From assembly GCA_963787835.1 (NCBI GenBank), contig CAWBEI010000007.1, forward strand, positions 1 to 64,000: 64,000 nt of DNA. The letters are read 5' to 3'. The stretch comes from Ignavibacteriota bacterium (GTDB lineage Bacteria; Bacteroidota; Ignavibacteria; Palsa-1295). The notes under the pieces were generated by a model. It did no database searches. It worked only from the letters and a program-made list of their open reading frames with translations, and was not told the origin of the DNA. The position numbers were made by a program, and so were the translations under genes. Below are positions 22,523 through 35,724 of the stretch, in pieces (position 1 is the first letter of the stretch; every line of letters begins with the position of its first letter).

Positions 22523-24034
22523 ATGGCAGAAATACTTATACCCACATCCGAAAATATAACTGTTGAACTCAAGCCGGTAAAGGCAATTCCGAAAGCAGGA
22601 AAGCTTTTCATAGGCGGTGAATTCGTCGATTCACTTTCCGGACGTACTTTCGAGACCCGCAATCCTGCGACAGGCGAAGTAATAGCTGAAATAGCAGAGG
22701 CAGGAGCGGCGGATGTCGATCTCGCGGTTCGCGCTGCACAGAAGGCATTTGAAGAGGGAAGTCCGTGGCGGAAGATGAATCCGAGAGATCGCTCCCGAGT
22801 GCTGTGGAAGCTCTCTGAGCTGATCCGTGCCAATGCGGAAGAGCTTTCGGAGTTAGAAACACTCGATACGGGCAAGCCGATCTTTGAGTCCTCACGATTC
22901 GATATTCCACTTTCCGCTGAATGCTTCGAGTATTACGCAGGCTGGCCGACAAAGATCGCTGGCGAAACTATTGCTAATACGGCAGGCGGTGATGCGTTAG
23001 TCTATACGCTGAGGGAACCCATTGGTGTATGCGGCCAGATCATTCCCTGGAATTTCCCACTCCAGATGCTCGCCTGGAAAGTAGCTCCCGCGCTTGCGTG
23101 CGGTAATACGATCGTGTTGAAGCCAGCGGAGCAGACCCCACTTACAGCGCTCCGTTTTGCCGAACTGACGCTTGAAGCAGGCATACCTGCGGGTGTATTT
23201 AATGTCGTAACAGGATTTGGCCCGACAACCGGCAAAGCAATGGTCGATCATCCTGGGATCGATAAGATTGCATTTACGGGCAGCGTAGAAGTAGGGAAGG
23301 AGATCATGCGCGGCGCGGCGAACACCCTCAAACGTGTCTCCCTTGAACTTGGCGGGAAGTCACCAAATATCGTTTTTGCAGATGCCGATCTTGAAACCGC
23401 AGCAAAATTTGCGCTTGGTGGTATCTTCTTCAATCAGGGCGAGATGTGTACCGCTGGTTCTCGTATTTTCGTTGAAGAAGCTGGATATGATGAGTTCATG
23501 TCTGTGCTTCGAGGACGTGCGGCGAAGATGGTGGCGGGCGACCCACTTCATCCCAAGACGCGCCTCGGTTCCCTTATTTCGCAGGAGCATCTCGATCGTG
23601 TGCTGAATTATGTCACGATCGGAAAGAACGAAGGCGCTTCCGTAGCCATTGGCGGCGAGCGAATTGGCTCGGCAGGATATTTTATGAAGCCAACTGTGCT
23701 CGAAGGTGTGACGAATTCCATGCGCGTTGCACAAGAGGAAATTTTTGGCCCGGTCGCATCAGTAATTAAATTTAAAGATCCCGAAGAGGGAATTCGCGAA
23801 GCAAACAATTCCCAATTCGGGCTCGCTGCTGCCATTTGGACCCGCGACATAAAGAAGGCACATCAGATGGCTCGCCGAGTGAAGGCTGGAACGGTGTGGG
23901 TTAATACTATTTCTACTACGGACAACGCCGTTCCCTTTGGCGGCTACAAATCGAGTGGCTTTGGACGGGAACTTGGCAGAGCGGCTATTGATCTTTACAC
24001 AGAGACGAAGACAGTGTGGGTGGATTTGAATTAA
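22523..24034 (+). CDS. NAD-dependent aldehyde dehydrogenase
   Basis: IIPWNFP, KPAEQTP, FTGS, LELGGKSP, NQGEMC and EEIFGPV motifs. Confidence 0.95.
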   Translation: MAEILIPTSENITVELKPVKAIPKAGKLFIGGEFVDSLSGRTFETRNPATGEVIAEIAEAGAADVDLAVRAAQKAFEEGSPWRKMNPRDRSRVLWKLSELIRANAEELSELETLDTGKPIFESSRFDIPLSAECFEYYAGWPTKIAGETIANTAGGDALVYTLREPIGVCGQIIPWNFPLQMLAWKVAPALACGNTIVLKPAEQTPLTALRFAELTLEAGIPAGVFNVVTGFGPTTGKAMVDHPGIDKIAFTGSVEVGKEIMRGAANTLKRVSLELGGKSPNIVFADADLETAAKFALGGIFFNQGEMCTAGSRIFVEEAGYDEFMSVLRGRAAKMVAGDPLHPKTRLGSLISQEHLDRVLNYVTIGKNEGASVAIGGERIGSAGYFMKPTVLEGVTNSMRVAQEEIFGPVASVIKFKDPEEGIREANNSQFGLAAAIWTRDIKKAHQMARRVKAGTVWVNTISTTDNAVPFGGYKSSGFGRELGRAAIDLYTETKTVWVDLN

Positions 24035-24131
24035 TCGTCTGAACCTTGAATTTATATGATTTTAGAAATTATGTAAGATAGGATTCCGCTCCTAATCAAT
24101 TAATCGTCTCGAATAACGGTTCAGACATGTA

Positions 24132-24611
24132 ATGTTCGAACACCTTCCCATCAAACGCCGGCGCGTGCTTCGCGGACTTCTTGCTGGAGGGATTCTTGCA
24201 GGGACCGCGCCCTTTGTGTATGCTGCGGCGAAATTTCTTTCGTTCCAGAGCGTACTCGGTGGGAGTTCAACTGCAAAGGTTTCTGCCGCTGACCTTACGC
24301 CCGATAGTCCATCCACACTTGTTGAGATCGAGGGCGAGCCTGTGATTGTTGTGCGCGAGATGGATAATCAAATCCGAGCATTCACAGCATCTTGCACTCA
24401 CTTGGGATGCATTGTGTCTTATCGAACTCAGCTTGCGATTGGTCAGGAACAGAAGCCGGGATTTTATTGCAAATGCCACGGCGGGAAATATGATCTGAAC
24501 GGAGTGAACATTCCCGGCACACCTCCCAAATCTCCACTGACGGAAATAACGGTCGTCGCGGTTGCGGACGATCTTACTATTTCACTAACGCCAAAGACGA
24601 AAGGGACGTAA
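24132..24611 (+). CDS. Rieske 2Fe-2S subunit of a cytochrome bc-type complex
   Basis: Twin-Arg signal; CTHLGC and CKCHGG boxes; stop codon overlaps the cytochrome b ATG. Confidence 0.9.
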   Translation: MFEHLPIKRRRVLRGLLAGGILAGTAPFVYAAAKFLSFQSVLGGSSTAKVSAADLTPDSPSTLVEIEGEPVIVVREMDNQIRAFTASCTHLGCIVSYRTQLAIGQEQKPGFYCKCHGGKYDLNGVNIPGTPPKSPLTEITVVAVADDLTISLTPKTKGT

Positions 24612-25870
24612 TGGATCTGATCGATGCCCTACATTTACGTGAACCCTGGGAAGCGATAAAGGCGAAAACTGTCCCGCGCCACTGTAGTTCGATCTGGTAT
24701 TATATGGGTGGTCTTGCGCTCTTTTTCTTATGCATCCAGATCGTGACAGGCATTCTCCTAATGTTATATTATCGGCCCGTTCCGGAATCAGCGCACGACA
24801 GCATCCAATTATTAATTACGAAAGTACCATTTGGTGAAGTAATACGGTCCGTTCATGCGTGGGCTTCGAATGCGTTGATCGCACTTGTCTTGATCCACAT
24901 GTTCAGCACTTTTTTTATGAGGTCCTACCTGTCTCCGCGTGTGATCCTTTGGGTAACAGGTGTTGTGCTGCTGATCATTATGCTCGGCTTTGGATTTACC
25001 GGCTATCTGTTGCCATGGGATCAAACTGCTTATTTTGCGACACGAATCGGAACTGAAATTCCTAGATCTGTTCCTGTTTTTGGCGACTGGATAGCAACAT
25101 GGCTGCGAGGCTCGAAAGAAGTTACCGGCTCGACACTCACCCGCATGTTCGCGTTGCACGTTACTGTGCTGCCGATGATCGCCTTTGCATTCGCAGCAAC
25201 ACATATTGCTATTACTGCACTTGCTGGAAGCAGTGTGCCTTCGGGTGCAAAGATAAAGAGTACTATTCGTTTTATTCCAAATTACATTATGGGTGAGGCT
25301 ATAGTATGGCTGATTGGACTGGCCGTCCTTTTAGCTGTTGCTGTGCTTTATCCCTGGCCGCTTGGTATTGGTTATGATTTGTTGAAACCATCTGAACCAC
25401 CTGCTGGAGTTCATCCAGAATGGTATTTCATGTTCCTGTTCCAAAGCTTGAAATACATTCCTGAATGGGCGGTGGTTGTTTCATATACTCTTGTTCTTAT
25501 TTTTTGGACGCTGGTTCCCTGGCTCGACCGGAGATCACGCTCTGACGGGAAAAGTCCAGCATTTACCATCATCGGAATTGTTAGCATTGCTGGGATGGCT
25601 GTTCTTACGTCACTTGCGTATATTTCAGTCGATCAGGAAATAACCACGGCAAGGATGGAGCAGGGAAGTGTTTCGATTTCGACAAACGTGCATTCAAGTT
25701 CGGGTATATCGATCGATACGGTGACTAAGGCAACCAATAATCCGGCGGTGCAGCACCCAGGAAGCATCGACACAACCACTTGGTCGTTCTTGTCGATAGC
25801 GGCTATTGCATTTCTGATTTTGCTATTGATACTTGTCCGTTCGGCGATAACCAATCGACAATCAACATAA
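24611..25870 (+). CDS. Cytochrome b (fused b6/subunit IV type)
   Basis: WYYMGG, four heme-ligand His residues, GYLLPWDQ and PEWYF motifs. Confidence 0.92.
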   Translation: MDLIDALHLREPWEAIKAKTVPRHCSSIWYYMGGLALFFLCIQIVTGILLMLYYRPVPESAHDSIQLLITKVPFGEVIRSVHAWASNALIALVLIHMFSTFFMRSYLSPRVILWVTGVVLLIIMLGFGFTGYLLPWDQTAYFATRIGTEIPRSVPVFGDWIATWLRGSKEVTGSTLTRMFALHVTVLPMIAFAFAATHIAITALAGSSVPSGAKIKSTIRFIPNYIMGEAIVWLIGLAVLLAVAVLYPWPLGIGYDLLKPSEPPAGVHPEWYFMFLFQSLKYIPEWAVVVSYTLVLIFWTLVPWLDRRSRSDGKSPAFTIIGIVSIAGMAVLTSLAYISVDQEITTARMEQGSVSISTNVHSSSGISIDTVTKATNNPAVQHPGSIDTTTWSFLSIAAIAFLILLLILVRSAITNRQST

Positions 25871-29219: not shown

Positions 29220-29294
29220 TGTTAGATGTTGTGGTTCGGACACTTCCTAATGCGTCCTCCTGTTTTACGCGTTTAGGTTGCGATTCATCTCTAC

Positions 29295-31037
29295 ATGGCC
29301 GAGCTCTTCATTTCCTACTCGAGGCGCAATGCCCCCCAAGCGCTTGATCTGGTAGCCGATCTTCGGGCGGAAGGGTATTCCGTATGGATTGATCAGGGAG
29401 GTATTGAGGCGGCGCAAAATTGGTCATCGAGAATAGTTGAGGGTATCAACGATTGTTCCACCCTCGTGCTTCTGGTTTCTCCATATTCTGTTTCTTCCCA
29501 CAATGTCGCCAGGGAGCTTCAACTTGCGTTCGAAAAACGGAAGAATCTTCTTCCAATTATAATCGAGAATGCCGCTCTTCCGTCGAATTTCGAGTACCCT
29601 CTCGCTGGCATTCAGCAAGTTCAATACCATGATCGGTCCGGCATTCTACAAGCACTGAAATTGCTGCGGAGTGGTGTTGCTGCCACCGAGTTGCCTGCTC
29701 AACCTGAAATTGATGATACCTATATCCGAGTTGCCGTTCTGCCGTTTGACGATCTTTCACCTCAGCACGACAATCAATGGTTCGCCGACGGGATGATGGA
29801 TGAGCTTATCGGCACACTGGGTCAACTCGATCTTGTCAAAGTACCCTCACGTTCCGATGTGTTGCATTATCGCGACCGCCGCGCAAAGAGCCGCGAGATC
29901 GCTCGAGAGCTTGGCGTTCGCTACCTTATCGAGGGGGCTGTCCGTAAAGCAGGAGAACGCATACGCATCAATGCAACGCTCACGGATTCGCGGCAAAATG
30001 AGCAGCTTTGGGGAAACCAGTTCAATGGTATTATTAATGATGTTTTTGAATTTCAGGAGTCGGTTGCGAAGCAAATTACCGATGCGTTGCAGCTAAAACT
30101 GACCCCGAAAGAAGCGGAAGTGATCGAATCGAGGTCCACCCAAAATGTGGAAGCCTATGAGCTGTTTCTTAAAGGTCGGCACGAACAGTATTATTACACG
30201 AAAAAGAGTTACCTACGCGCCCTTGACTTATACGAACAAGCGGCCACACTCGATCCACAGTTTGAGAGAGCATACATTGGCATCGCTTCTATTTCGTGCG
30301 TGTATTACCGAGAGTTTTCTAAAAATCCTCAATGGCTGCAGCGCGCCGACGACAGTGTGGCAAAAGCGGAGGTTATTGCCGGCGAGACCTCGAAAACGCT
30401 ATATATTCGAGGCATGATCGAGTGGCTGAGAGGCGACACTGAGCACGCGATCGCAACGCTCAACAGGTCGGTTGCGATCGACCCCAATTACCCCAACCCT
30501 TTTAATGTGCTTGGAGCAATCCATCTGGAGAACGAGAATTTCAGCGAGGCAGCAACGGCATTCCAACAAGTAACTGAACTGAGTGAAAACGCGATGGATT
30601 ATTTCAACCTCCTTGCTGCTCTCGATGGCTCTGGGGAAACGGAGAAGCTCTCGCAAGTCGCTCAAAAAGCAATCCCGGTCCTTGAGCGGTATCTGCTTCG
30701 GGAACCCGATGATGTAAATGCCATTGTCACCAAAGGATTTGTTCTCCATTGGGCGGGAAGAAATGCTGAGGCAGGCGAAATTGCCGATCGCCTGTTCGAT
30801 CAGATCGATCTTGGCGCGCAGGTGCAGAGCCGCCTGGGATCGCTGTACCAGACATTAGGAAAACCCGAATTGTACCTTTGCTTGCTCCGTGAAGCAATTA
30901 AGAATGGCTACCGTGGGATAGAGCAAACGCGCAAGACTTTTGAGACCGAGGATCCAGCATTGGCTCGGGAATTCCAAGCGATCATCTCCGAACTCGAAGA
31001 GTTAATCGAGCGAGAAAAGTCCTCAAGTCCGGCGTAA
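29295..31037 (+). CDS. TIR domain + TolB-like alpha/beta domain + TPR protein, paralog 1
   Basis: LFISYS, VWID and NVARE TIR motifs; VAVLPFDDLS..WFADG..ELGVRYLIEGAVR domain; TPR repeats. Confidence 0.88.
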   Translation: MAELFISYSRRNAPQALDLVADLRAEGYSVWIDQGGIEAAQNWSSRIVEGINDCSTLVLLVSPYSVSSHNVARELQLAFEKRKNLLPIIIENAALPSNFEYPLAGIQQVQYHDRSGILQALKLLRSGVAATELPAQPEIDDTYIRVAVLPFDDLSPQHDNQWFADGMMDELIGTLGQLDLVKVPSRSDVLHYRDRRAKSREIARELGVRYLIEGAVRKAGERIRINATLTDSRQNEQLWGNQFNGIINDVFEFQESVAKQITDALQLKLTPKEAEVIESRSTQNVEAYELFLKGRHEQYYYTKKSYLRALDLYEQAATLDPQFERAYIGIASISCVYYREFSKNPQWLQRADDSVAKAEVIAGETSKTLYIRGMIEWLRGDTEHAIATLNRSVAIDPNYPNPFNVLGAIHLENENFSEAATAFQQVTELSENAMDYFNLLAALDGSGETEKLSQVAQKAIPVLERYLLREPDDVNAIVTKGFVLHWAGRNAEAGEIADRLFDQIDLGAQVQSRLGSLYQTLGKPELYLCLLREAIKNGYRGIEQTRKTFETEDPALAREFQAIISELEELIEREKSSSPA

Positions 31038-31055
31038 CCTCCATATATTTGGCTC

Positions 31056-31565
31056 TTAATGCCCAGCACACGGAACCCCGAGATCCCGAATGGATATTGC
31101 AACGGAATTACCACTTGCATCGGAATAGATCGTGGTTCCAGAGCCCGTATTGTTTGGCGATGCCGCAGGCACGCTGGTGACGGTGGAGTAGGAGCTACCA
31201 GCAGCATCCGTTGCGGTGACGGTGATGTTGGTTCCGTTGGCAGGGGCGCATTGGGTACAACTAAGCTTGGTTGGGCTTAACGTGCATGACCCGGCAGACC
31301 CTCCAGAAACCGTTACCGATTGGGATGGAGAGCCATTGAAGGATACCGAAAAATTAACGGAATCAGGGGACATTCCCGGTTGAGTCGTCACGTTAATTGG
31401 AAGAGAGGCTGCTGCAGGTGGCATGATCTGCGCGGTGTACGCTCCGGTCGTATGGGTTGGGTGAAGAGCAGAGTTATGGATCGTTCCAATTTGAGGATGG
31501 AATGCAAATCCAAAGAGTGCCAGGATCGGAATTATCAAGATCGCGGGAATAAAACGTTTAAGCAT
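31056..31565 (-). CDS. Small secreted protein, convergent partner 1
   Basis: Signal peptide MLKRFIPAILIIPILALFGFA; Ser/Thr/Gly-rich with 4 Cys; own TATATTTG promoter. Confidence 0.7.
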   Translation of the reverse strand: MLKRFIPAILIIPILALFGFAFHPQIGTIHNSALHPTHTTGAYTAQIMPPAAASLPINVTTQPGMSPDSVNFSVSFNGSPSQSVTVSGGSAGSCTLSPTKLSCTQCAPANGTNITVTATDAAGSSYSTVTSVPAASPNNTGSGTTIYSDASGNSVAISIRDLGVPCAGH

Positions 31566-31640
31566 GGTCGCAATAATTAGGGATATGAAAATGTTAGAAA
31601 ACAACCGGATGAGCAGGACTTTCGCTCAACCAAACAAATA

Positions 31641-31648
31641 CAAATATA
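31641..31648 (-). promoter_or_regulatory. TAnnTTTG -7 element for partner gene 1
   Basis: CAAATATA on the plus strand. Confidence 0.55.
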
Positions 31649-31746
31649 CGATGAAAATATTTCTAAAATATTAAAATCATGGGTAAGGGAGCTTCCCAAA
31701 CGGTTGCAATGTTCCGTTTCCTCCATTTGGCTGCGATACTTCATTT

Positions 31747-33489
31747 ATGGCAGAGCTTTTTATCTCCTACTCGAAATCCGACCAGCCTTTGGCACTTGAA
31801 CTGGCGGATGAGCTACGCGGGCGTGGATTTTCGGTGTGGATCGATCAGGGTGGGATTGAAGGAGCAAAGAACTGGTCTGCCGAAATCGTTGAAGGAATCA
31901 AATCTTGTTCAACGTTTATTGTTCTGATCTCACCGAATTCCATCGCGTCCAGGAATGTCGCAAAAGAGGTGCATCTTGCATCCGAAAAAAGCAAGACCAT
32001 CCTTCCAATTGTTATTGAAAAGGTTTCTCTTCCCGCTGATTTTGAGTATTCTCTTGCTGGTCTTCAGCACGTCTATTACCACGACCGCCCGGCGATCTTT
32101 CGCGCGCTTGACGGGATGAAAGGAGTCGCAGCGACGGAGCAATTTACCACCATTCGAGAAATGGACGAATCCATTCGGGTGGCCGTGCTGCCATTTGACG
32201 ACCTTTCGCCTCAACACGATAACCAATGGTTTGCAGATGGCATGTTGGATGAACTTATCTCTACGCTTGGAACCATTGACAAAATGAGGATTCCCGGTCG
32301 CTCGGATGTGCTCCATTATCGCGACCATCAGAAAAAAAGCCGCGAAATAGCAAATGAGCTTGGCGTCCGCTACCTTATTGAAGGTGCGGTTCGAAAAGGC
32401 GGCGAGAAAATTCGAATCAATGCTTCCCTAACTGATACCCTGCGCGGTGAACAGCTTTGGACCAACAAGTTCGATGGGACATTTGATGATGTCTTTGCAT
32501 TCCAAGAAGCGGTTTCGAAAAATATTGTGCATGCGCTTCAGCTTACCCTCTCCCCTGATGAGCAACACCAAATGGAAGATCGTGGAACCCAGAATGCCGA
32601 AGCGTATCAACTTTTTCTCAAAGGCAGGCATGAACAGTATTATGTTACAAAGGAAAGTTACCTTCGCGCTCTTGATTATTACGAAGAAGCAGCCAGGCTT
32701 GATTCGAAGTTCGAACGAGCGCATATAGGTATTGCTTCGATCTGCTGCGTATATTACCGAGAATACTCGAAGGATCCTAAATGGCTAAAACGTGCCGAAG
32801 CAAGCCTTACTAACGCCGAGGCTATTGCGGGAGAGACTTCGAAAACGCTATACATTCGTGGAATGATCGAGTGGTTAAAGGGTGACGACGAGGCTGCCGT
32901 CGCTACCCTCACGCGCTCTGCTCAACTCGATCCGAAATATTACAACGCCTTCAATGTGCTTGGAGCGATTCACATGGAGAATAGGAACTATCCTGCCGCT
33001 GCGGAAGCATTTCAGCAAGTAACCGAGCTTGTGGAAACGACCCAGGGCTACGCCAATCTCCTTAATGCTCTCATCCAGACCGAAGAGAGCGAATTAAGAA
33101 TGAAATTAGCTGAGAAAGCGCTACCGGTCTACGATCGTTATCTCCTTCATGAACCATCGGATCAGCATGCTCTAGTTTCCCGAGCGCAAGTTCTACTTTG
33201 GGCAGGGAAAAAAGAAGAGGCTGTGGAAGCGGCTTCCCATCTCCTTGACAAAGACGATTTAGATGGGCAAGCATTATTTAAACTCGGAGTTCTTTATAGC
33301 AACCTCGATAAGCCAGAAGTTTATATCACATTGCTTAGAAAAGCAATTGATTGCGGCTACCGCGAAATCGAGCAAACTCGGAACCACAGATTTGAGACTA
33401 AAGACTCAGCATATGAAGCCGAATTCAAGAAAATCATAAGAGAGCTCGAAGAGATCATTCGATCAGAGAGCCTTGTTCAGACAATGTGA
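31747..33489 (+). CDS. TIR domain + TolB-like alpha/beta domain + TPR protein, paralog 2
   Basis: Same 580-aa length and architecture as paralog 1; NVAKE motif. Confidence 0.88.
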   Translation: MAELFISYSKSDQPLALELADELRGRGFSVWIDQGGIEGAKNWSAEIVEGIKSCSTFIVLISPNSIASRNVAKEVHLASEKSKTILPIVIEKVSLPADFEYSLAGLQHVYYHDRPAIFRALDGMKGVAATEQFTTIREMDESIRVAVLPFDDLSPQHDNQWFADGMLDELISTLGTIDKMRIPGRSDVLHYRDHQKKSREIANELGVRYLIEGAVRKGGEKIRINASLTDTLRGEQLWTNKFDGTFDDVFAFQEAVSKNIVHALQLTLSPDEQHQMEDRGTQNAEAYQLFLKGRHEQYYVTKESYLRALDYYEEAARLDSKFERAHIGIASICCVYYREYSKDPKWLKRAEASLTNAEAIAGETSKTLYIRGMIEWLKGDDEAAVATLTRSAQLDPKYYNAFNVLGAIHMENRNYPAAAEAFQQVTELVETTQGYANLLNALIQTEESELRMKLAEKALPVYDRYLLHEPSDQHALVSRAQVLLWAGKKEEAVEAASHLLDKDDLDGQALFKLGVLYSNLDKPEVYITLLRKAIDCGYREIEQTRNHRFETKDSAYEAEFKKIIRELEEIIRSESLVQTM

Positions 33490-33491
33490 TG

Positions 33492-34058
33492 CTACGGAGT
33501 GGTTGCTGCAACGTCTGCAACGACTACCGTTGCAATATTATTGCCAGTGGGGTCTGAATAGGTCGATATTTCAACGCCATGGCCGGCGCCAACTCCAGCC
33601 GTATTGATGGGAGACGCGGTAACACCGTATGTGCTGTTCTGAATAGCGGCAGCGATCGGGAATTGCTGATTGGCATTGCTGCCTGGAATGCTGAATACGT
33701 TCCAGGTATTGGGCGTAAGCGCATTGCTCGCAAAAGTATGGAGAGGAGCATCCGCTGAACCAACCCTAATGGTTTGGACTGGTGGATTAGCTCCTGCAGC
33801 CACCGTGTAATACACAGCCACGAGGACATTGTTGGCCGACGCACCAGCATTAGGTGGAGTCAGAGTTACCGTCATGGCTATCGTATTCCCAGCGTTCGCA
33901 GGCATAATCGTTGTTGTCTGAGGATTATTTAAAAACATTTTCACAGATGTGGGTGCAGGTTTTGTTGAATCCATCGTACCATTTACCGTCTTCTTTTCGC
34001 AGCCAAAGCCACCAAACGCGATAAGAACAGCAAGTATGGGAATGTAGAATTTTTTCAT
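33492..34058 (-). CDS. Small lipoprotein, convergent partner 2
   Basis: MKKFYIPILAVLIAFGGFG-C lipobox; C-terminal motif shared with partner 1. Confidence 0.72.
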   Translation of the reverse strand: MKKFYIPILAVLIAFGGFGCEKKTVNGTMDSTKPAPTSVKMFLNNPQTTTIMPANAGNTIAMTVTLTPPNAGASANNVLVAVYYTVAAGANPPVQTIRVGSADAPLHTFASNALTPNTWNVFSIPGSNANQQFPIAAAIQNSTYGVTASPINTAGVGAGHGVEISTYSDPTGNNIATVVVADVAATTP

Positions 34059-34133
34059 ATTCGTATTTCTAAAAATGATTAAGAACTGCAACCAAAACAT
34101 CGGAGTGGGGAAGCCACTCAGAACACATAATTA

Positions 34134-34141
34134 CAAATATA
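34134..34141 (-). promoter_or_regulatory. TAnnTTTG -7 element for partner gene 2
   Basis: CAAATATA on the plus strand, in the same TACAAATATAC context as 31641. Confidence 0.55.
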
Positions 34142-34178: not shown

Positions 34179-35165
34179 TCAGGAAATACTTGAAGTTTTT
34201 TTCATCGCGTCGGCAAGACTCTGCCGTTTCGTCAGCACATCAGCGAACAGGTCGCCTTTCTTCTCAATTCGTGCTGGCATTGTCTTGATCGTGAACTGTT
34301 CGAGGGTGAGCTTTTTTGTTATTTCGTTCCATTCGACTGGAGCGCTTACCAAGGCGTGAGGTTTTTCGCGCACAGAATATGCCGATGCCATGCTTTTACC
34401 TTCCATATTCTGTAGGTAATCGATATAGACTTGGGATGCATTGCGGTCGTGAACCATTCGCCGAATGGTAGCTGATTTGGGATTCCGCTCTGCAACAATG
34501 GTGGCTATTTGTTTTGCGAAGGGAAAGATCTCGTCATACGTGTAATCGGGCTTGATGGGAACATAAATATGAATCCCACGAGAACCGGAAGTCTTTGGGT
34601 AGCCAACCAATCCCACTTCATCCAACACGGTCTTTATATCGAGAGCAATAGCTTTTACTTGTTCAAAACTTGCTTTGTCACCTGGATCGAGATCGAATGC
34701 TATATAATCGGGCTTCGCGATCGATTGCACTCGCGAGAACCAGGGATTTTGCGTAATCGTACCGAGATTGACAAGATATAATAACGCAGCAAGGTTATTA
34801 GCAACCGGGTTGAGAACCATTTTGCCATTCGGTTCGCGCTTCGGATAGATCTCGATAAAATCGGGAGCATCCTCAAGATTATGCTGATAAAACATTTGAC
34901 CAGTTATTCCATTCGGATATCGCTTTAGAATGAGCGGCCGGTCTTTGAGGTAGGGGAGGATGGTTTCAGAGATGGTATAATAATATTTCAGCAGATCGAA
35001 TTTTGTATAGCCTTTATCCGGCCAGAATATTTTATGGAGATTGGTGAGCTTGATTTTGACATCATCAATGGCAAGCGTAGCATCACCGTGGTATGCGTTG
35101 GCAGCAAAGAACTCTTTTGCTGAGATCGAAGCAGTGTTAGTCTTGTGATTTGCTATGCTTCCCAT
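34179..35165 (-). CDS. Stand-alone LigD polymerase (primase-polymerase) domain protein
   Basis: TKFDLLKYY, RYPNG, FDLDPG, KTSGSRGIHIYVP, YIDYLQN and AYSVR motifs. Confidence 0.9.
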   Translation of the reverse strand: MGSIANHKTNTASISAKEFFAANAYHGDATLAIDDVKIKLTNLHKIFWPDKGYTKFDLLKYYYTISETILPYLKDRPLILKRYPNGITGQMFYQHNLEDAPDFIEIYPKREPNGKMVLNPVANNLAALLYLVNLGTITQNPWFSRVQSIAKPDYIAFDLDPGDKASFEQVKAIALDIKTVLDEVGLVGYPKTSGSRGIHIYVPIKPDYTYDEIFPFAKQIATIVAERNPKSATIRRMVHDRNASQVYIDYLQNMEGKSMASAYSVREKPHALVSAPVEWNEITKKLTLEQFTIKTMPARIEKKGDLFADVLTKRQSLADAMKKTSSIS

Positions 35166-35178
35166 GATTGGTGCGTGA

Positions 35179-35724
35179 CTATGGTTTTGTCGCTGCTTCC
35201 CTCCGGGAGCCATAATCAAGAATTGGTTTCAAAACCCAGCTGGAGTCGGCGTAGTCATCGTGGTGCTTGAGCAGCAGCCAATATTTTGGACCTCGATTTT
35301 TCATTTGAATAAGATGAAATTCACCTTTGAGCTTTTTTCCATGAAGCAGGAAAGTTAGCTTACCATCAGTTAATTGTTGATCGATCGTGTGTTCTCCGAT
35401 TACCGCGTAGGTCCCTTTATCCCATATTCTTACTTCACCCGCACCATATTCGCCTTCGGGGATGGTTCCTTCGAATGTATTATATTCAATGGGGTGGTCT
35501 TCCGTCCTAACGGCAAGGTGCTTATCGTTCGGATTCATCGATGGGCCTTTTGGCACCGCCCAGGATTTCATCACGCCGTCGATCTCAAGACGGAAATCGA
35601 AGTGCAAACTCGTGGCATGGTGCTCCTGCACGACAAAACGATGCCCCTCAGACTTGTTCATTTTTCCTTTCGGCTCGGAAGTCTTCGAAAAATCGCGTTT
35701 TGTATGATATTCTGTGAGTGGCAT
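35179..35724 (-). CDS. Stand-alone LigD 3'-phosphoesterase domain protein
   Basis: KRDFSKTSEP, FVVQEHHA..LHFDFRLE, SWAVPKGP, EDHP and YGAGEV.IWD motifs. Confidence 0.92.
   Translation of the reverse strand: MPLTEYHTKRDFSKTSEPKGKMNKSEGHRFVVQEHHATSLHFDFRLEIDGVMKSWAVPKGPSMNPNDKHLAVRTEDHPIEYNTFEGTIPEGEYGAGEVRIWDKGTYAVIGEHTIDQQLTDGKLTFLLHGKKLKGEFHLIQMKNRGPKYWLLLKHHDDYADSSWVLKPILDYGSRREAATKP

Follow-up and report, generated by a model that had tools for sequence, protein, structure and literature searches.

Why would genes for soluble, cytoplasmic TIR sensors meet, tail to tail, genes for small proteins that leave the cytoplasm? The question is raised by a 64,000-nucleotide stretch (the window: positions 1 to 64,000 of contig CAWBEI010000007.1, assembly GCA_963787835.1) from an Ignavibacteriota bacterium, whose genome (G000) falls within Kapaibacteriaceae, judging from how its relatives are labelled. 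The stretch carries two sensor genes (T1 and T2, with a TIR domain, a CadC-type domain and TPR repeats) and two convergent genes for exported partners (S1 and S2), with the following features.

29238..29264, forward strand: T1 upstream element, bipartite GGACACTTC-N13-YTGTT, conserved, about 30 nt before T1.
29295..31037, forward strand: T1, a 580-residue open reading frame (ORF) with a TIR domain at about 1-125 (Glu74), a CadC-type alpha/beta subdomain at about 142-265 and a TPR superhelix at about 282-580; soluble, cytoplasmic.
31056..31565, reverse strand: S1, a 169-residue exported protein with a Sec-type signal, of the new S family (ATG at 31565; the ORF reaches a TTG at 31604).
31611..31627, reverse strand: S1 leader hairpin, short, common to the S genes of the genus.
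31641..31648, reverse strand: TAnnTTTG box upstream of S1.
31688..31713, forward strand: T2 upstream element, a degenerate copy recognised by eye; the strict pattern gives no match.
31747..33489, forward strand: T2, the second 580-residue TIR/CadC-type/TPR sensor, 63% identical to T1.
33492..34058, reverse strand: S2, a 188-residue lipoprotein (ATG at 34058; the ORF reaches an ATG at 34100), made up of a lipobox with Cys20, a flexible linker, a conserved TTxIxPP segment and a LecB-like beta-sandwich.
34103..34119, reverse strand: S2 leader hairpin, followed by a T-rich run.
34134..34141, reverse strand: TAnnTTTG box upstream of S2.

The four ORFs lay where an earlier, sequence-only reading of this DNA had placed them, with the stop codons 18 bp (T1/S1) and 2 bp (T2/S2) apart. 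Four low-depth DNA runs from one study matched the window nearly letter for letter, one contig spanning the T2/S2 junction, and no RNA sequencing runs containing the window were listed. T and S form a real, conserved and undescribed module of two genes. It is a variant of the TIR sensor-effector systems and probably represents a new sensing system, built from two genes, that acts across the cell membrane. Comparison of genomes makes it very probable that the two genes are functionally linked, because they were held together while flanks and a co-directional protease were lost or changed, and because partner-less T genes of the same clade were broken. As the sequence-only reading had supposed, no description of the pairing was found in the literature searched, whose coverage lay largely outside subscription papers and did not include supplements.

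T-like genes were expanded in Kapaibacteriaceae (4 to 29 matches per genome in 24/24 family genomes), mostly as partner-less head-to-tail arrays of up to 10 copies. A FastTree phylogeny was built from 106 rows, of which 100 were deduplicated proteins of at least 380 residues from Kapabacteria-like loci and six came from G000; it left out Ignavibacteria-type and most metagenome matches, and its support values were Shimodaira-Hasegawa (SH)-like only. One clade of 28 rows (SH support 100) bore S. A convergent small exported gene was found in 24 of these rows, while the four without a partner of their own were two genes directly upstream of a T-S unit, one cut by a contig end and one truncated. 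No S lay downstream of the 68 rows outside the clade that could be read for 300 bp or more beyond the T gene; these were followed by another T (40), a same-strand gene (17) or an unrelated convergent gene (11), and the four other full-length T paralogs of G000 had no convergent small exported neighbour. The association of T with S (24/28 clade rows against 0/68 outside rows) therefore exceeded chance.

Seen from the partner side, an S profile matched 19 of the 24 partners, and a profile of mature S matched 18 sequences, spread over 13 of the 401 class genomes and each adjoining a clade T. No S was found away from a clade T in the 401 genomes, with 10 candidates scored in each; most of the 18 matched sequences were already in the profile, and the informative part is this absence of other sites. 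At least 13 different upstream neighbourhoods were present among the 17 loci with that flank visible, contexts being the useful number because kin are not independent. The expectation that homologs keep a convergent exported partner was thus borne out in one clade across at least 13 neighbourhoods, which argues that the genes belong together, but not in the wider family with its partner-less arrays. A later search yielded one further clade T gene, a TIR-less remnant without S; both clade T genes found without S were broken, one truncated at its C-terminus and the other lacking the TIR and alpha/beta domains. A metagenome scan added at least two clade loci among 80 listed, both with S. So far the module is known from a single family of uncultured bacteria of soil and freshwater, and the clade was patchy: it occurred in 10 of the 15 genomes of the genus, and the query used did not find it in five genomes of 91-100% completeness.

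The T proteins matched Pfam TIR_2 at residues 5-113 (E 1.5e-21 for T1, 3.1e-23 for T2), TPR families and, weakly, TolB_N. Their maximal 19-residue hydropathy was just 0.98 and 1.16, so that T has no membrane segment, and Glu74 aligned with the Glu of 7UXR, a TIR of known structure, and was present in 101/101 ungapped rows of the family alignment; both properties had been read correctly from the letters. This Glu is presumably the catalytic residue, and from its presence T is predicted to cleave NAD. The AlphaFold2 model of T2 (pLDDT 85) contained TIR, alpha/beta and TPR regions only. Residues 1-126 matched TIR domains (Z up to 16.3, for the SPARTA TIR), and residues 133-460 had the same alpha/beta plus TPR fold as the CadC periplasmic sensor (PDB 3LY7/3LY9; Z 20.0, root-mean-square deviation (rmsd) 4.3, 296 aligned residues, TM-score 0.66-0.69 by target). 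Of the "TolB-like/TPR" assignment made earlier, the TPR part and a weak TolB_N match stood, but the fold is that of the CadC periplasmic sensor. A search of the ESM Atlas gave no lead (best scores 0.77 and 0.79). In many bacteria, CadC-type (TolB-like/TPR) sensors occur fused to outputs of several kinds (TIR, cyclase, kinase, DNA-binding), with long arrays, and no paper naming ligands of the soluble ones was found in the literature searched. Because one clade has a fixed partner gene, the question of the ligand can be put to a direct test there, with only two small genes.

S is a new, undescribed protein family, mostly lipoproteins. The claim that the partners carry a Sec signal or a lipobox was upheld: S1 had a Sec-type hydrophobic N-terminus without a lipobox, S2 a lipobox at Cys20. 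No Pfam family fitted S. A HMMER scan with a profile of 15 partners retrieved 68 proteins from 1.84 billion representatives, 66 of them under 220 residues and the other two long and unrelated, and a word-index search just six. Among 62 aligned S proteins, 55 began with a hydrophobic stretch, and a simple pattern picked out a lipobox-like Cys in 46. The partners were 155-220 residues long, with a predicted folded beta-sandwich of about 130 residues. The S2 model (pLDDT 78) was such a sandwich and matched LecB/PA-IIL (1GZT) over 106/114 residues (Z 9.3, rmsd 3.1), a score near the range where common folds score, followed by thrombocorticin (7F91; Z 8.9), the next row having Z 5.8; Foldseek also found the LecB-type fold (E 6e-4).

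LecB kinship of S is thus a predicted likeness of fold, for which sequence support was weak and not reproducible: one sequence profile gave E 2-9, the mature-domain profile did not recover LecB, and 0/62 S members matched the PA-IIL Pfam family at E 0.05. Weak full-length matches of the S profile were mostly signal-peptide matches and were gone with the mature profile. S differs from LecB in its lipoprotein signal and in one more conserved strand at the N-terminus, and its conserved TTxIxPP segment sits just outside the LecB-like core. The two-calcium site of LecB comprises Glu95, Asp99, Asp101, Asn103, Asp104 and the C-terminal Gly114 (PMC8752737). The corresponding loop of S, between the last two strands as placed by secondary structure, was apparently short and held 0-1 acidic residues in 43/62 proteins, and an acidic two-calcium loop appears to be absent. 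Since sequence support for LecB kinship was weak and this loop apparently missing, sugar binding by S is not implied.

Are the two units of the window copies of each other? T1 and T2 shared 67% DNA identity over 1,345 bp and 63% of their residues; S1 and S2 had 27% amino acid identity and no DNA similarity, their homology being visible only via relatives. The tandem unit had been described as duplicated; two units are present, but they are old alleles side by side, not a recent tandem duplication. At the equivalent site, G002 had the T1-S1 unit alone and G009 a T-T-S arrangement. The orthologous S1 proteins of G000 and G002 were 85% identical in their mature part, with a dN/dS (ratio of nonsynonymous to synonymous rates) of 0.04, akin to the most conserved part of T, and this strong purifying selection extended over the whole length. 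Same-site S proteins were only 27-28% identical in G000/G009, G023/G043 and G020/G049, with flanking proteins 84-99% identical, while G019/G041 retained one S allele. Tight conservation within and deep divergence between alleles fit replacement of whole S alleles rather than steady drift, a pattern compatible with exchanged specificity types. An allele swap between near-identical genomes was considered for G023/G043 and toned down, DNA identity being 97% on one flank and just about 80% on the other.

What could a soluble sensor read from such a partner? The preferred reading, with a probability of roughly 0.4, is that T monitors S, or a piece derived from it, directly; allele-like diversity, the 24 clade-specific conserved positions in the sensor part of T and the broken-T pattern fit recognition. 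S, a predicted lipoprotein, would leave the cytoplasm, and binding by T, either of S itself or of a piece cut off by a protease, would take place only when S or the piece is inside, upon failed export, envelope damage or proteolysis. S-bound T would then switch on NAD cleavage via ligand-driven oligomerisation, which is known from other TIR systems. The output might be a signal or growth arrest; signalling or a response to stress seems likelier than suicide against phage. If T does read S across the membrane, protein export or the intactness of the envelope would be under a guard-type logic, of which no TIR example has been described. The guard system suggested by the sequence-only reading, which would fire when export of the partner fails, is conceivable.

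Several observations weigh against direct sensing. T and S end up in different compartments, and their genes are convergent, not co-transcribed. The correlation of T and S distances was weak within the genus (rho 0.13-0.36) and highest beside the gene junction, a peak explained by linkage alone, and TPR variability was equally high in partner-less arrays. Pairing is not one-to-one at T-T-S (G005, G009) and T-S-S (G001, G004, L167) loci, the S profile scored five partners from other genera (L040-L043, L075) no better than controls, and the broken-T argument consists of two cases. A signal-less S beside an intact T in G001 is awkward for the idea that any cytoplasmic S fires T, and the sole S of G007 was frameshifted, though the 5' part of its T was off the contig. 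Of the cognate receptor-ligand pairs first proposed, belonging together is supported, while strict one-to-one pairing is weakened by the layouts and the low correlation. Decayed S copies were common, being frameshifted in L044 and L167, inverted and frameshifted in L089 and signal-less in L037; an intact second S was present in 3/4 of these loci. The inverted copy (L089:1560-1992) lay between T and the intact S and resembled the decayed copy of L167.

Among known systems, the co-component systems ToxR/ToxS and VtrA/VtrC are cassettes of two genes, one for a sensor and one for an exported partner beside it, and evolve fast (10.1101/2022.04.08.487670). T differs from CadC and these sensors in having a TIR output instead of a helix-turn-helix (HTH) and no membrane segment, which puts T and S in different compartments, unlike the co-component sensors. 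The genes are moreover convergent, not in one operon, and S is predicted to be LecB-like. By analogy, the T/S pair may work most like a co-component sensor-partner cassette with TIR output, though it belongs neither to that class nor to RRNPP, Thoeris or Avs.

A more specific form of direct sensing, which must be considered unlikely, has the soluble TIR receptor guarding a dedicated, polymorphic, lectin-fold lipoprotein decoy, as a new class of surveillance module. Jammed export or an attack on the envelope (by phage, predator protease or lipoprotein-pathway antibiotic) would leave the decoy, or a subtilase-cut piece of it, in the cytoplasm, where it would dock on the CadC-type sensor and cause NAD cleavage, the alleles being swapped as specificity types. 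If true, S would be the first ligand that genetics suggests for the TolB-like/TPR sensor module, which is widespread and a ligand orphan; a weaker reading still leaves a lipoprotein family that is new and has a predicted LecB-like fold, together with a conserved element resembling a promoter.

Linkage through a shared pathway without contact, the main rival to direct sensing, is somewhat unlikely, and explains the layout in other terms: S, with or without the subtilase, would act as a binding protein or processing factor and make, capture or remove a small sugar or peptide ligand outside the membrane, and T would sense the imported ligand and produce an NAD-derived messenger, co-transfer keeping the genes together. 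The opposite compartments of T and S, the housekeeping-type flanks, the tolerated T-T-S and T-S-S layouts and the weak co-divergence are all in line with this, as are the predicted lectin-like fold of S and the binding of a small molecule, cadaverine, by the CadC sensor fold (10.1101/2022.04.08.487670). However, the acidic two-calcium sugar site of LecB (PMC8752737) seems absent from S, no transporter or downstream effector was seen travelling with the module at the examined loci, and alleles as deeply diverged as those of S are more often a mark of recognition systems.

Could the pair be held together by its DNA rather than its proteins? The bipartite T upstream element had 13 matches in 8/35 family genomes, 11 of them directly upstream of clade T genes, against three matches for a reversed-pattern control, and its N13 spacer was invariant; it is likely a dedicated promoter or operator. 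No regulon was found for it in G000, which had one strong site only. The TAnnTTTG box, which we take to be the Bacteroidota housekeeping -7 consensus, occurred within 150 nt upstream of 16/21 S starts, against 3% of random 150-nt windows. The S leader hairpin had five pairs, one with a change on both sides; covariation was weak, and an attenuator is possible. With separate T and S elements, the module appears as a self-contained unit with inward-pointing upstream elements.

At the other ends of the genes, T/S junction gaps were -14 to 57 bp in 20/23 cases, most without room for a terminator, and terminator-like sites in the window were at chance level (7 against 5.7). Overlapping 3' ends might thus link the genes by antisense or transcriptional interference, or the pair might hitch-hike as an inseparable block, and convergent orientation was never lost in intact pairs. 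This account is improbable, as junction sequences were not conserved and some gaps reached 80-222 bp, S never stood alone in the 401 genomes, the pair stayed together through at least 13 changes of its flanks, and no such stickiness was found outside the clade, where the 11 convergent neighbours were all unrelated.

The co-directional protease is an exported subtilase encoded just upstream of the small partner gene in eight loci (8/22 partner-bearing rows), identified by Pfam Peptidase_S8 in the four scanned loci and by a local profile in the others. Modules of the window's genus had no such gene next to them, and the link of S to T outlived its link to the subtilase; the module was perhaps ancestrally a three-gene one. 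The potempins of Tannerella forsythia, outer-membrane lipoproteins of 98-132 residues, inhibit genetically linked KLIKK peptidases, including a subtilase (PMC9890683). S is likewise a small lipoprotein whose gene is linked to that of a secreted peptidase in the eight loci, which belong to other lineages than the window, and there subtilase and S were co-directional and closely spaced, mostly with no separate box before S. It could accordingly be imagined that S inhibits or chaperones the subtilase, or lures foreign proteases, and that T reports on the protease system. That is hardly probable either: in the window's genus S was kept under purifying selection and stayed with T after the linked subtilase was gone, and gene order is reversed, potempins lying upstream of their peptidase and S downstream. 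The folds seem to differ as well, potempins being beta-barrels (OB-fold or up-and-down) and absent from the matches listed for the S2 model, a predicted LecB-like sandwich. In G000 an unlinked subtilase of 1031 residues (G000:C2:802918-806013), homologous to the module-linked ones, ended in a C-terminal secretion-signal-like domain, and similar stand-alone copies occurred in G002, G006, G015, G018 and G044.

In RRNPP/arbitrium systems a short co-directional precursor yields a small peptide. The sequence-only reading had suggested peptide-sensing signalling in their manner. Its full form, in which a short peptide cleaved from S would come back into the cell and report density through the TPR groove, is very improbable and not supported: T shares a cytoplasmic TPR superhelix and an adjoining exported gene with Rap, NprR and AimR (RapI Z 15.8, NprR Z 15.0), S alleles are many and an exported subtilase is linked in eight loci, yet CadC matched better (Z 20.0), T has a TIR output and no HTH or Rap domain, and S is a folded 130-residue beta-sandwich conserved along its whole length (dN/dS 0.04), on the opposite strand with its own promoter-like box.

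Like TIR immune proteins (Thoeris ThsB, TIR-SAVED, SPARTA TIR-APAZ, Avs/NLR-TIR), T combined a TIR fold and conserved Glu with a fused sensor, a patchy distribution and gene turnover. Unlike these systems, it had no ThsA, cyclase, Argonaute or STAND partner and no defence genes in its flanks. Matches of T to defence profiles were limited to the TIR part and far below curated cut-offs (Thoeris NF058526, 34-35 bits against 220 for T1/T2); Pfam ThsB_TIR gave 20.7 and 22 bits against 21.2, on the TIR part only. No P-loop family indicative of a STAND NTPase (Avs/bacterial NLR) was found in T by the Pfam scan, and no ThsA effector adjoined the module (PADLOC on S1/S2 and 60 flanking ORFs). PADLOC found no defence system in 60 of the 72 listed flanking ORFs (partners and some duplicates omitted), its three matches all being generic ATPase or methyltransferase domains, and the flanks appear to be housekeeping-type, not defence islands. 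No T relative was found in viral contigs, and the viral structure library gave no match at E 0.001. With neither viral relatives nor defence flanks, an anti-phage role has no positive support.

Genes for a LigD primase-polymerase and a phosphoesterase adjoined the module (window 34179-35724). G002 had an additional ligase-like gene between these two, and G012 carried a TIR-less T remnant at the site equivalent to the LigD-flanked module of the window (L329). On the other side (window 22523-25870), an aldehyde dehydrogenase gene stood before Rieske-type and cytochrome b-like genes, with synteny in G002.

Outside the S-bearing clade, arrays of 6-10 partner-less T paralogs (L046:5128-19156; L047:4471-20000; L048:2051-19999; L088) had overlapping stop and start codons and retained Glu74 in all ungapped rows. 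In Ignavibacteria and relatives, arrays of proteins of about 705 residues (L116-L135) had the same sensor module with a different N-terminal domain, often behind the same genes of 430 and 250 residues. A small paralog clade carried a membrane helix between TIR and sensor, giving a true CadC topology with TIR output (three non-clade genes, G000:C2:884627-886495, L047:9679-11535 and L114:2407-4257). The divergent partners of other genera (L040:5241-5873; L041:3366-3941; L043:8451-9119) showed a membrane-anchor-like N-terminus, then a stretch of 4-5 cysteines and a linker rich in Gly and Ser. A palindromic repeat element lay upstream of two non-clade paralogs (G000:C2:884530-884626 and C2:989860-989960).

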